This document shows, piece after piece, positions 20,021-28,845 of a DNA stretch of 64,000 nucleotides. Each line of letters starts with the position of its first letter. Within the stretch, counting starts at the first letter, position 1. A program made the translations under genes and the position numbers. Under the pieces are notes generated by a model that was not told the DNA's origin, searched no databases, and saw only the letters and a list, made by a program, of their open reading frames with translations. This DNA comes from Eledone cirrhosa (lineage: Eukaryota): the NCBI GenBank assembly GCA_964016885.1, contig OZ024740.1, positions 5,518,001-5,582,000 of the forward strand, written 5' to 3'.

Positions 20021-20231
20021 CTATATATATATATATATATATATATATATATATATATATATATATATATATATATATATATATATATATATATATATAT
20101 ATATATATATATATATATATATATATATATAGTAATAATAATAAAATTGAAGACTAAAATCCAAAGAGGGCTCGATAAGGAAAATATATATCAAATATAT
20201 AAGAACCGTAGAGCAAATATTTATTAAAATA

Positions 20232-20307
20232 ACAGATTAAAGTTTAAGCAAAGAATCGCTGCTTTCACCCTTAACGGGATCTTCTGAAACTAACAAAGTC
20301 AATCTGT
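20232..20307 (-). ncRNA. Type I hammerhead-like ribozyme in the PLE 3' region (family B, variant core)
   Basis: Minus strand: ACAGATTGA-ctttgtt-AGTTT-CAGAAGA-T-CCC-gttaa-GGG-T-GAAA-GCA-gcgattctt-TGC-TT-AAACT-TTAATCTGT. All three stems pair; core has U4A; triplet is CUU. Confidence 0.65.
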
Positions 20308-21219
20308 AAACGCAGAACTGGATATTTAAAAAAACGTTGCAACCGGAGGAAGACAGGAAGACGATACTTTGGTTCGTGGTAACGTTCGCTGGCAAAGAAC
20401 GGGAAAAAACGAATAATACGTCATTAATAGGAGCGGTGAAAAACAATTACGCGCAAAGACAAAACCACGTTTATGGTATAAAAGAGGTCGTAGACTAATG
20501 TTCTCTTAGGTGGTGCATAGAGACGTTCTCTGGCAATGAACGAAAAAACGAAGATAATAAGTCATATGTGGAGCGTGGAGAACAATAGCACGCAAAGACA
20601 AAACCACGTAAATGGTATAGCAGAAATCGTAGACTAAAATTCTAACTAGGAGACCAAATGAATCTCCGCTACAGAGTTAAGAACAAAGTAAATAAATACA
20701 ATACGGAAGTAATAGGAACAAATAAATACATACACGCAAACAGATACGTACATACACAAGCATACGCAAAACCTTACCATGGGTATACAAAACCACGCAC
20801 ATATAAATATGTGTGTGTGTGTATGCTTGTGTACAAATAAATAAATAATTATATAAACGTATATAAGTAAATAAATACGTATATAACAAGCGCACACGCA
20901 TACCTACATATAAATACACGAATGTTCGGAGACGTAAGTCAACTAAAACAAGAAGTACACGTATACACACACCCACCATACGTACGAACCTGCACACTCA
21001 CGCGGACGCAAAACTCCCGTATACACATAGCCAAACCCTAAATACCAGAATATGTAAAAATGATACGCTATAACAGTCAAATATACGTACGAGAAGGTAT
21101 ACATACCTTCACAAAACATACGGGTAATATATACTTACCTATGCAAATACGTAAAGGAATAAACAAAACATATACTTAGCTCCCACATCAAGACGTAAAA
21201 TATCCACGTATAGATCGTG

Positions 21220-22357
21220 CTATCCGTTAGGGTATAACGTGGGGCTGTAATACAGGAAAGTTTTGTGCAATTTATGTTTACAAGCCGAAATTGCCTCAGA
21301 TTTTTTGTTTAAGATGTGGTCTGTAGCGTAGAGTATTTCCAGGGCCTCAGCGGCGCAGAGGTCACATGGTCTTTTATTTCCGTTATACGATCTAGCCCTA
21401 GCTAGGATCTCCCAGTGTAACTTATATTGGGTGTGGTTGTCTTTTAGACTCCAGATATAAGCTGAAAGTGACGTCATATTCCTTCTTAGAGGGTAACGAA
21501 AAGAATGGGTATGCATGTAAAGACGCTGCTTGAAACTATTGGCGGTTAACCCTATGTAGGCCCTACGGGACGTGGGTGTTACAACCTTACATTTGTAGAC
21601 AATGTTACTAGAGAGGCAATTCCCGGATAGGGGGCAATCAGTCCGATTCCTACAATTACAGTTAGTACTACCTACAGGGTTGCACGTGTTCCTACGGCTA
21701 GGTAGTTTAGCTAAATTTAAAGCTGTGATGTTATATGCAAGGTTAGGAGTAGTAGAGTAAGAAATTTTAATAGTATTTCTATTAAAAATTTTACTATATT
21801 TATGTGTAGGGGGGAAATGCTTCGTAATAAGGGAAAGAAAGATCTTAGCTAATGGTGTGGCCACCTCCATATTATATGGTGGGTTAAACCAACAAATGCG
21901 ACGGGATCTATTCCTTCTAGGTCTATTTTCGTACACTGTATATGCTACCTTATCGACAAATCCACTTCGAGCAAGAGCTTCATTGTAATAAGTGGAATGG
22001 TCGTTGAAAATGCGCTCGTTGGTGGAAAGACGGGAAAGCCTCAACGAAACGTTTCTTACCAGGTTCTTGGTTATGCTGGCAGGATGGTTGGAATGCTTAC
22101 TTATGTAATTAAGCGTATCATTCGGCTTTCTATACGGGTAATACAACCCATTCAATAAATTGAAGGTAACGTCGAGGTAATTAACGACCGAGAGATTGGC
22201 CTCAACCTGTCTAGAGAGGTTGAAGCCTTTAAAGAAGGCTGTGAGTTCTTTTCTGAACCTGTCGCAAGCACGAGGTCCGCACTTAGTCATGGTCAAAAGA
22301 CCATCGTCACGGTACAAACCACCGCCCGCGTTGGGGAATTCGTCCTTGATAGAGAAA
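21220..22357 (-). CDS. PLE RT (C-terminal half) + GIY-YIG endonuclease, open frame, 5'-truncated
   Basis: Uninterrupted frame from FSIKDEFPN to PTLYPNG (about 378 aa); the N-terminal IYIY part of the listed ORF is microsatellite read-through. Confidence 0.85.
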
Positions 22358-22406
22358 TATATATATATATATATATATATATATATATATATATATATAT
22401 ATATAT

Positions 22407-25535: not shown

Positions 25536-26029
25536 TTTTCAACTTATCGTTTTCGGTATGCCTGACCGATTTAACTCACTCTATATGCAAATTAGGCTGC
25601 TCAGCCGTTAATTTTCATAAGGAAAGTATATACTTTCGAACGTTCAACTATCTGGCAGATGGGTAAACGGTGCTGATGATAGCTAACAAGCTTGAAACTA
25701 GTACATCGTTCCTGTGTCAGTGTTGAACAAAAAGGTGACGTGGTTGCCTTAACACCGTATGGCATAAATTCAGGCTGTTCGCTTTGTTGACAAACAAACG
25801 AACAAAGCGGCCGGCGTTATAATAAACGTAGGCTAAACTGATGCGTGCATATATGTATGTGTACCTGTATGCATATGTGTATATATATGTATATATATAT
25901 ATATATATATATATGCTTGCTACTGTACGTCTGTATACATATATGTATGTACGTATACATACATACTTACATTTAAGTAAGTGCCATACTAAGAGTGAGA
26001 AATGAAATTTCGTTTTCATTTTTTTCAAC
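25533..26029 (+). mobile_element. Inverted single monomer capping the family C array
   Basis: Reverse complement of one unit; starts and ends at TTTTTTCAAC, followed by (TA)n. Confidence 0.88.
25666..25710 (+). ncRNA. Minimal type I hammerhead ribozyme (family C)
   Basis: AACGGTG-CTGATGA-T-AGCT-aaca-AGCT-T-GAAA-CTAG-TA-CATCGTT: 7-bp stem I, palindromic CTAG stem III, GUA triplet (predicted cut after 25703). Confidence 0.85.
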
Positions 26030-26141
26030 CTATATATATATTTTTCTCTATCAAGGACGAATTCCCCAATATATATATATATATATATATATATATATAT
26101 ATATATATATATATATATATATATATATATATATATATATA

Positions 26142-26375
26142 TGAATATAGACATAGAATATTCGAAAATATTCTGTATGTTTATAATAAACATTTTGAAG
26201 ACCTAATCGCTATAGAATAGAATACGTCACGTATTACAATTAGATTCTCGATAAAAGCAAGGGAAGTAATCTACGCGTTTCATTCTTATTAGAAATCTTC
26301 AGGACTACATATCCAGTGCTTTTATCGAGAATGACACAGCTAGAGACTTATAGAATACTTAGCTGTGTACAGGAA
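26142..26375 (-). mobile_element. Inverted partial monomer capping the family D array (contains HHR 26266-26308)
   Basis: Reverse complement of 26376-26606; hairpin centre CTGTGTACAG-gaa-CTGTACACAG; its 3' end ATTCA abuts (TA)n. Confidence 0.88.
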
Positions 26376-28500
26376 CTGTACACAGCTAAGTATTCTATAA
26401 GTCTCTAGCTGTGTCATTCTCGATAAAAGCACTGGATATGTAGTCCTGAAGATTTCTAATAAGAATGAAACGCGTAGATTACTTCCCTTGCTTTTATCGA
26501 GAATCTAATTGTAATACGTGACGTATTCTATTCTATAGCGATTAGGTCTTCAAAATGTTTATTATAAACATACAGAATATTTTCGAATATTCTATGTCTA
26601 TATTCACATATATATCGCTATTTCAGAGCATTTATTCCAATTTCTAATTTCTGCCGGACCGGCAACCGCTCTTTCAAACCAGTTCCTGTACACAGCTAAG
26701 TATTCTATAAGTCTCTAGCTGTGTCATTCTCGATAAAAGCACTGGATATGTAGTCCTGAAGATTTCTAATAAGAATGAAACGCGTAGATTACTTCCCTTG
26801 CTTTTATCGAGAATCTAATTGTAATACGTGACGTATTCTATTCTATAGCGATTAGGTCTTCAAAATGTTTATTATAAACATACAGAATATTTTCGAATAT
26901 TCTATGTCTATATTCACATATATATCGCTATTTCAGAGCATTTATTCCAATTTCTAATTTCTGCCGGACCGGCAACCGCTCTTTCAAACCAGTTCCTGTA
27001 CACAGCTAAGTATTCTATAAGTCTCTAGCTGTGTCATTCTCGATAAAAGCACTGGATATGTAGTCCTGAAGATTTCTAATAAGAATGAAACGCGTAGATT
27101 ACTTCCCTTGCTTTTATCGAGAATCTAATTGTAATACGTGACGTATTCTATTCTATAGCGATTAGGTCTTCAAAATGTTTATTATAAACATACAGAATAT
27201 TTTCGAATATTCTATGTCTATATTCACATATATATCGCTATTTCAGAGCATTTATTCCAATTTCTAATTTCTGCCGGACCGGCAACCGCTCTTTCAAACC
27301 AGTTCCTGTACACAGCTAAGTATTCTATAAGTCTCTAGCTGTGTCATTCTCGATAAAAGCACTGGATATGTAGTCCTGAAGATTTCTAATAAGAATGAAA
27401 CGCGTAGATTACTTCCCTTGCTTTTATCGAGAATCTAATTGTAATACGTGACGTATTCTATTCTATAGCGATTAGGTCTTCAAAATGTTTATTATAAACA
27501 TACAGAATATTTTCGAATATTCTATGTCTATATTCACATATATATCGCTATTTCAGAGCATTTATTCCAATTTCTAATTTCTGCCGGACCGGCAACCGCT
27601 CTTTCAAACCAGTTCCTGTACACAGCTAAGTATTCTATAAGTCTCTAGCTGTGTCATTCTCGATAAAAGCACTGGATATGTAGTCCTGAAGATTTCTAAT
27701 AAGAATGAAACGCGTAGATTACTTCCCTTGCTTTTATCGAGAATCTAATTGTAATACGTGACGTATTCTATTCTATAGCGATTAGGTCTTCAAAATGTTT
27801 ATTATAAACATACAGAATATTTTCGAATATTCTATGTCTATATTCACATATATATCGCTATTTCAGAGCATTTATTCCAATTTCTAATTTCTGCCGGACC
27901 GGCAACCGCTCTTTCAAACCAGTTCCTGTACACAGCTAAGTATTCTATAAGTCTCTAGCTGTGTCATTCTCGATAAAAGCACTGGATATGTAGTCCTGAA
28001 GATTTCTAATAAGAATGAAACGCGTAGATTACTTCCCTTGCTTTTATCGAGAATCTAATTGTAATACGTGACGTATTCTATTCTATAGCGATTAGGTCTT
28101 CAAAATGTTTATTATAAACATACAGAATATTTTCGAATATTCTATGTCTATATTCACATATATATCGCTATTTCAGAGCATTTATTCCAATTTCTAATTT
28201 CTGCCGGACCGGCAACCGCTCTTTCAAACCAGTTCCTGTACACAGCTAAGTATTCTATAAGTCTCTAGCTGTGTCATTCTCGATAAAAGCACTGGATATG
28301 TAGTCCTGAAGATTTCTAATAAGAATGAAACGCGTAGATTACTTCCCTTGCTTTTATCGAGAATCTAATTGTAATACGTGACGTATTCTATTCTATAGCG
28401 ATTAGGTCTTCAAAATGTTTATTATAAACATACAGAATATTTTCGAATATTCTATGTCTATATTCACATATATATCGCTATTTCAGAGCATTTATTCCAA
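26376..28500 (+). mobile_element. Tandem array of 310-nt HHR-containing monomers (putative non-LTR retrozyme family D), about 6.9 copies
   Basis: Exact 310-bp period (GTCTCTAGCT at 26401, 26711, ... 28261); HHRs start at 26440+310k (k=0-6); no differences seen between copies; ends in (TA)n. Confidence 0.9.
26440..26482 (+). ncRNA. Minimal type I hammerhead ribozyme (family D)
   Basis: GTAGTC-CTGAAGA-T-TTCT-aata-AGAA-T-GAAA-CGCG-TA-GATTAC; distal stem I extension ATTCTCGATAAAAGCA/TGCTTTTATCGAGAAT (16 bp); GUA triplet (predicted cut after 26476). Confidence 0.87.
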
Positions 28501-28845
28501 TATATATATATATATTATATATATATATATATATATATTATATATATATATATATATATATATATATATATATATATATATATATATATATATATATATA
28601 TATATATATATATATATATATATATATATATATATATATATATATATATATATATATATATATATATATATATATATATATATATATATATATATATATA
28701 TATATATATATATATATATATATATATATATATATATATATATATATATATATATATATATATATATATATATATATATATATATATATATATATATATA
28801 TATATATATATATATATATATATATATATATATATATATATATAT
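28501..28845. repeat. Long (TA)n microsatellite
   Basis: About 345 bp of nearly pure TA. Confidence 0.95.

Follow-up and report, generated by a model that had tools for sequence, protein, structure and literature searches.

A 64,000-nucleotide stretch of the Eledone cirrhosa genome (assembly GCA_964016885.1, contig OZ024740.1, positions 5,518,001 to 5,582,000), referred to here as the window, contains a Penelope-like element (PLE) of the Hydra type, termed family P, next to two tandem arrays, A and B, whose units carry hammerhead ribozyme motifs and resemble retrozymes. An earlier note on this DNA had described a PLE, two tandem arrays and an inverted arm on each array, and all of these parts were confirmed at the locus. 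In window coordinates, the locus begins after an RTE-like long interspersed nuclear element (LINE) fragment with a (TA)55 target tract at 20022..20131, followed on the minus strand by P (20132..22357), which is 5'-truncated and retains the last 2225 bp of a 3260-bp unit, with its 3' end at the downstream one of two fixed end sites. The sequence between these two sites (unit positions 3175 and 3260) forms an 85-bp tail at 20132..20216. A hammerhead-like motif with the variant core CAGAAGA, a U-U at the base of stem II and a predicted CUU cleavage triplet is located at 20242..20290, and the remnant of the open reading frame (ORF) lies at 21220..22356, both again on the minus strand. This remnant has 378 stop-free codons from the YRDD motif of the reverse transcriptase (RT) through the end of GIY-YIG, and includes the RT thumb, a CxCX5C linker, GIY-YIG (YIGLT), CxxC and CxH.

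A (TA)n tract at 22357..22406 separates the truncated 5' end of P from the long arm of array A (22404..25535, minus strand), which consists of about 6.5 units of 484-502 bp with an internal (TA)11-20 and contains six hammerheads (cores at 22716, 23172, 23666, 24150, 24652 and 25136); its outer end is at +272 from the predicted cleavage site. The short inverted arm of A (25532..26033, plus strand) overlaps the long arm by 4 nt, has one hammerhead (25673), and ends at +328. It is followed by a 28-bp inverted copy of the 5' truncation end of P (26042..26069, plus strand), which together with 22331-22357 encloses array A, and by a (TA)37 tract at 26069..26142. The short inverted arm of array B (26133..26378, minus strand) has one hammerhead (26302), an outer end at +139 and a 3-nt overlap with the long arm (26376..28501, plus strand). 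The latter repeats its 310-bp unit 6.9 times at 100% identity, contains seven hammerheads whose cores lie at 26446 + n x 310, and has its outer end at +165. A last (TA)n tract extends over 28500..28845.

Neither the 28-bp piece nor the variant hammerhead of P had been recognised in the first reading of the sequence, which described every junction as a (TA)n tract. This is correct for the junctions between elements (20022-20131, 22357-22406, 26030-26041, 26069-26142 and 28500-28845), whereas the arm-to-arm junctions are microhomologies of 3-4 nt. The arrays are non-coding, the ORFs across both being microsatellite read-throughs, and have no LTR (long terminal repeat) structure; A and B have no more sequence in common than shuffled controls do. 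Since array A is flanked by both halves of the 5' junction of P, we infer that it is younger than P, and that P was inserted first and A then entered this junction. The locus is an ordinary pile-up, and its value is in the footprint that the same families have left genome-wide.

The P element encodes a single ORF of 709 aa, with RT (YRDD at residue 346) followed by a C-terminal GIY-YIG (YIGLT at 598), and with the motifs RWR at 37, DKT at 115, CxCX5C at 564, CxxC at 662 and CxH at 690; a CCHH-like pattern was not found in this ORF. Its earlier assignment as a Hydra-like PLE is borne out by the Hydra-clade motifs of Craig 2021 (PMC8557442), all of which match except for a K to R change in the first. 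P insertions lie in (TA)n, and partial tandems, inverted truncated copies and the tail are all present. Intact autonomous copies, for which a search had been suggested, do exist: a 713-codon stop-free frame was found in 27 of the 68 best matches to P and was confirmed in all ten that were fetched (10/10), and the remnant at the locus is identical at 363-369 of its 378 residues to residues 332-709 of ten intact copies. Pfam recognised no domain on P itself; among 46 aligned proteins it recognised RVT_1 in 4 and GIY-YIG in 1, and a PDB sequence search using the alignment gave 0 matches. Long open frames are also present in three other Hydra families, Q (784 codons), R (about 749) and S (759), and additional Hydra families occur as fragments. 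At loci L091-L092 (G000 C1:437.20-437.21 Mb), four full-length Q units are arranged in tandem with a period of 3531 bp, each with its 784-codon open frame, and many near-identical copies are found elsewhere; the pLTR (pseudo-long terminal repeat) of Q has, by eye, a hammerhead-like layout with the core GAGAAGA. A GIY-YIG fragment at window 52450-52761 (plus strand; Pfam E 5e-7) resembles, by eye, the Naiad endonucleases shown in the supplement of Craig 2021.

Our own motif scan, on which, and not on Rfam, the hammerhead assignment is based, identified a type I core together with stems I and II in all full units of the arrays (6+1 in A and 7+1 in B). One A copy has an altered loop III and the terminal partial A unit has no hammerhead, and the claim that every monomer carries one therefore holds for the full units only. 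Beyond the two arrays just 2 matches to the scan were obtained in 64 kb, representing one genuine PLE pLTR pair. An Rfam search, also proposed in the earlier note, showed no hammerhead at the gathering score or among the best 150 of 198 matches at E<=10; what it returned was microRNA-like, to hairpins and microsatellites. Stem III is a single pair with a palindromic loop at its end, CUAG in A and CGCG in B, a form described as working as a dimer in the axolotl (PMC7229834), and a U-U at the base of stem II is common to the hammerheads of A, B and P. The P layout has the core CAGAAGA in 47/48 matches at fetched loci and is not the minimum-energy fold; canonical cores are present in families R and S. 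Variants that are fixed in the ribozymes fall at N7, in loop II or at pairing-tolerant stem positions, never in the core, although five single-copy changes do hit it. As predicted circles, the monomers fold better than 40 shuffles (z -8.7 for A and -4.0 for B). Elsewhere in the window, an inverted canonical hammerhead pair of the family R pLTR type at 1546-1772 forms a short two-armed remnant, and a diverged family S-type hammerhead at 42326 (minus strand) ends in TA. Further distinct hammerhead families were seen beside TA tracts at L023, L035, L049, L067, L076, L078 and L105.

Genome-wide, the exact B ribozyme of the window occurs in 1361 copies, and 16,234 copies are found when tolerated variants are allowed (control 0; both counted by sequence patterns), which at 310 bp each corresponds to ~5 Mb. 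Family A gave 898 candidates, with 45 scored matches at 99-100% on 7 contigs. Exact junctions between B and TA number 1256 at +139 and 1076 at +165, compared with 0 for a reversed-pattern control, and A ends at +328 number 495. The pattern for the A end at +272 gave 1969 matches (control 5), but since it also catches diverged subfamilies and low-complexity DNA it was excluded from the pairing analysis described below. At loci picked by the ribozyme alone, 18/18 B ends touch TA, the locus L016 being excluded because of an assembly gap, versus 6.0% of 138.6 kb of arbitrary sequence. These results agree with the genome-wide dispersal, TA enrichment and inverted arms that the earlier note had anticipated, as two-armed loci are recurrent, and contradict a single-locus satellite without TA bias, given the 16,234 ribozymes and >1,000 B ends abutting TA. 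Window 63702-63772, L018:5318-5422 and L037:5793-5968 hold a diverged relative of B, about 76% identical, that keeps the +139 end region. Array A has two older relatives (about 84% and 70% identity), found at L015, L027, L028, L040, L044, L055 and L073, which share its palindromic loop III and also insert with two arms.

It is very improbable that A and B represent assembly artefacts or local satellites that were spread through DNA recombination. Some long arrays did expand after insertion, and Li, Clavereau and Pollet 2026 (bioRxiv 10.64898/2026.07.22.740005) propose local amplification of pLTR-derived units, but the fixed paired ends already contradict either version, as do the locus-specific haplotypes and inverted arms at separate loci that number from hundreds to more than a thousand. 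In contigs of a public run, both the tandem junction and a loose TA end at +139 recur, and this run may be from the source sample. A near-identical monomer was seen as a 340-base looped contig in three runs labelled as other organisms; this fits tandem DNA equally and was not used.

The new finding concerns the outer ends. Each family has two of them at fixed positions: +139 and +165 from the predicted cleavage site in B, +272 and +328 in A, and unit positions 3175 and 3260 in P, with two ends each in Q, R and S likewise. In the first 218 Mb of C1, the contig of the 3.0-Gb assembly on which the window lies, where 84 and 100 B ends were listed and homotypic pairs would be detectable in those lists, 53/53 outward-facing end pairs within 20 kb consist of one of each site and 0 are homotypic; four further two-armed B loci outside these pairs agree. 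Among two-armed A loci, 6/8 have one of each, the other 2 have a non-standard end, and 0 are homotypic, and among those of P, which were counted by eye, 14/17 have one of each and 3 are homotypic. PLEs are known to carry a tail at just one end (PMC3846280), and in Frangieh 2024 (PMC11167929) a PLE protein extends both strands in vitro, starting at two internal sites next to each other; these RT start sites give the tail, which is there called unique to PLEs. That such a two-site tail is found on arrays without coding capacity is the best evidence here for A and B having likely been inserted by a PLE enzyme. Two other origins of the ends were considered and rejected. Random priming on a circle would give circularly permuted ends, whereas these are fixed, and co-insertion of P, A and B through a template switch is excluded because each has its own standard ends in TA.

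It is therefore probable that A and B are non-LTR retrozymes inserted into (TA)n tracts in trans by the RT-endonuclease of a Hydra-clade PLE. What has been observed is the anatomy, the dispersal, the TA flanks, the two fixed ends with their one-of-each pairing, the haplotype common to both arms and the intact PLE ORFs, whereas the proposed course of events, including cleavage, circles, twin priming and mobilisation in trans, is inferred from these. An array would be transcribed, and paired hammerheads, each with its one-bp stem III and palindromic loop, would cut out unit RNAs, which may be ligated into circles. The PLE protein would then cleave a (TA)n tract on both strands, and both DNA ends would be extended from two neighbouring internal start sites on one RNA (+139/+165 in B, +272/+328 in A), reading through the cleavage site for several units, until the two cDNAs are joined head to head via 0-6 nt of microhomology. 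As each insertion would leave TA on either side, later insertions could accumulate. A tentative extension, which we think doubtful, is that Penelope integration is itself a paired reaction, in which two RT active sites begin at two fixed starts on one ribozyme-made circle, roll around it and meet head to head; A and B would then be minimal parasites that keep the ribozyme and the start sites, and a CTC...GAG hairpin, duplicated just 3' of each Hydra-element site, would serve as the signal. By eye, this hairpin lies within about 10 nt 3' of 7/8 fixed end sites in the pLTRs of P, Q, R and S (L043, L091, L103, L112), with a looser version after the B +139 site and none at A, and as a candidate RT-binding signal it is a lead only.

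Haplotypes were compared in 60 B loci, 57 of them two-armed, a sample that covers little of the family as a whole. At 55/57 two-armed loci the haplotype is identical in the two arms (L016 and L019 differ), and at nine loci a variant is fixed in both arms and absent from the rest of the sample. The longer arm is the one ending at +165 at 34/55 loci and at +139 at 21/55. Inner ends are spread along the B monomer, with 1/76 within 10 nt of the cleavage site, and 24/38 inner junctions show an overlap of 0-6 nt. Arrays reach 25 units fixed for locus-specific variants, so a monomer-to-multimer step is needed somewhere, and repeated copying of one unit, probably a circle, would be the usual source of this homogeneity.

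Several observations weigh against insertion from cleaved unit RNAs by a PLE, or against parts of that scheme. The sense strands of the monomers have little advantage in folding over their reverse strands (z -5.6 for A and -4.5 for B on the reverse), hammerheads folded in isolation do not outperform shuffles (z -0.5 and -0.7), and cleavage was dispensable for insertion in vitro by the anole PLE (PMC11167929). An exact-pattern partner was found for just 53/84 and 53/100 of the listed B ends. Comparison of A and B with the non-coding parts of P, Q and R revealed no homology above shuffles beyond microsatellite-like stretches, and B against S around the ribozyme ties with the best of 60 shuffles (46 vs 46). 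At five two-armed A loci the arms share a haplotype as in B, but the array in the window is a mosaic of two haplotypes for one variant, with TA lengths of 11-20. Two long arrays (L131, L149-150) have recurring variants typical of later unequal exchange. Finally, at L019 the haplotype changes in both arms at the third unit, counted from outside, and L065 has a single variant in the same unit of both arms. Such mirrored variants need a multimeric template or arm-to-arm copying, as twin priming on a monomer circle would be insufficient. Of the unit-specific variants, 4 are shared and 35 unshared, and 19 more B loci examined for mirrored variants gave no clear case.

It is possible, though in our view doubtful, that the same enzyme mostly used an uncleaved multimeric transcript of the parent array and that circles are rare or absent. 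The mirrored variants and the mosaic A array would be explained in this way; unprocessed RNA is the main substrate of the anole PLE (PMC11167929), and 8/9 Xenopus retrozyme dimers failed to cleave in vitro. Such a template would still require the monomer-to-multimer step called for by the long homogeneous arrays, and the absence of fixed variants from the catalytic core also counts against it. A somewhat better case, which we nevertheless do not expect to hold, can be made for the second arm being a copy of the first cDNA, by fold-back or strand invasion, rather than the product of a second RNA priming. Whatever the template, copying of this kind accounts for the haplotype common to both arms and for the mirrored variants. 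Short palindromes or microhomology are present at inner junctions, self-priming has been proposed for head-to-head PLEs (PMC3846280), and the 28-bp inverted piece of P resembles a snap-back product. There is, however, no simple reason for a copy always to stop at the other fixed site (53/53), and the longer +139 arm at 21/55 loci is left unexplained. For the second arm, twin priming is tentatively favoured over fold-back.

The identity of the enzyme that inserted A and B is a separate question. For 21/73 B ends, some part of P, Q, R, S or A was present at a distance of up to 1 kb, as compared with 10/33 windows starting at any (TA)10 tract and 21/126 arbitrary windows, and P and Q account for 7 each beside B. 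Stacking beside B thus occurs at the rate seen beside any TA tract, and co-location is uninformative on the helper; the idea of a helper-parasite system caught at one locus, which the earlier note had put forward, is not supported by it. It is unlikely that P mobilised both A and B and that a single event or a specific partnership explains the locus. The adjacency, the enclosure of A by P-derived inverted ends, the many intact P copies, and the U-U at the base of stem II, which is also present in many Hydra hammerheads in File S2 of Craig 2021 (PMC8557442), are consistent with such a partnership. In opposition to these are the background level of stacking, the equal frequency of Q beside B, the fact that A and B end at their own standard TA sites as they do elsewhere, and the pLTR homology that was looked for and not found. 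In addition, stem II of B matches that of the S ribozyme and not that of P, and the U-U is found in an axolotl retrozyme as well. Rival helpers are available in no fewer than three further Hydra families whose open frames are long (Q, R and S). P is a possible helper but a doubtful one, and the helper may be Q, R, S or another family.

Outside the locus, the window contains an LTR retrotransposon at about 32980-37150 whose terminal repeats are 96% identical and whose gag, RT and integrase frames are broken; a marginal Rfam Histone3 match beside it (32873-32917) is probably due to chance. Many broken LINE copies, which we take to be mostly RTE-like, are found at 2271-19990 (including the left flank of the locus), 29332-32129, 38995-40438 and 53633-55099. 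A 31-bp tandem repeat of 7.5 copies with TTAGGG-like words is located at 50231-50461.

Retrozymes, Hydra PLEs and the proposal that PLEs move retrozymes are already in print, and A, B and P add to known kinds, though with a mechanistic signature that is unusually clean. The suggestion that these families are uncatalogued in this lineage stands in part: Hydra and Naiad PLEs are listed for Octopus, among them the Hydra PLE Hydra-1_Obim of Octopus bimaculoides (Craig 2021, PMC8557442), from which P, compared by eye, is visibly another family, while no paper on cephalopod retrozymes was found in the literature searched, which did not cover the supplements of Cervera 2020 and Li 2026. Likewise, the open literature searched, which did not include subscription papers or two supplements, contained no account of retrozymes with tails, paired ends or head-to-head arms. 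P resembles Hydra-clade PLEs (PMC8557442) in its C-terminal GIY-YIG, DKT, CxCX5C, CxxC and CxH motifs and lack of CCHH, and in its (TA)n insertions, inverted truncated copies and a tail that is often at one end only. It differs in the length of its unit (3260 bp, versus mostly under 3 kb for the elements listed) and its tail (85 bp versus 30-40), in having RWR for RWK, and in its CAGAAGA hammerhead core rather than a canonical one. The Chlamys PLEs such as MRC1 (PMC8557442) are, like A and B, non-autonomous with multicopy head-to-tail insertions, but they share 3' sequence with autonomous families and their clade is mostly without canonical hammerheads. Poseidon PAc of the green anole (Frangieh 2024, PMC11167929) belongs to a different clade and shows, as here, two adjacent internal RT start sites, cutting and extension of both strands and an AT-rich target; its start site was seen to be alike on both strands, and that paper neither states a genomic one-of-each rule nor mentions retrozymes, circles or inverted insertions.

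The closest counterparts of A and B are the metazoan non-LTR retrozymes of Cervera and de la Pena 2020 (PMC7229834), which are also non-coding tandem units of low GC with a type I hammerhead each and a self-paired predicted circle. The axolotl HHR_Amex1 shares with A and B the one-pair stem III with palindromic loop, and HHR_Amex2 the U-U at stem II. Those retrozymes co-exist with PLEs, which are named there as candidate helpers, and their circles were shown by experiment, whereas those of A and B are predicted. Array A units, with their internal microsatellite, exceed the 170-400 nt range given, and fixed paired ends, head-to-head arms and strict (TA)n targeting are not described in the accessible part of that paper. 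Li, Clavereau and Pollet 2026 deals mostly with vertebrates, and the words 'tail', 'head-to-head' and 'mollusc' are absent from its text; here PLEs and retrozymes are linked by the insertion footprint, and pLTR homology was not found. The strict one-of-each rule also constrains how PLE head-to-head insertions are formed, a step still unexplained, and as the genome offers four Hydra families with long open frames as candidate helpers, along with exact predictions of the start sites and a substrate of 310 nt, both this question and that of the helper could be addressed in one in vitro assay. Mobilisation of animal retrozymes by PLEs has hitherto been argued from co-occurrence, shared ribozymes and pLTR homology, whereas here the two-site footprint specific to PLEs marks retrozyme insertions at young loci that number from hundreds to more than a thousand.

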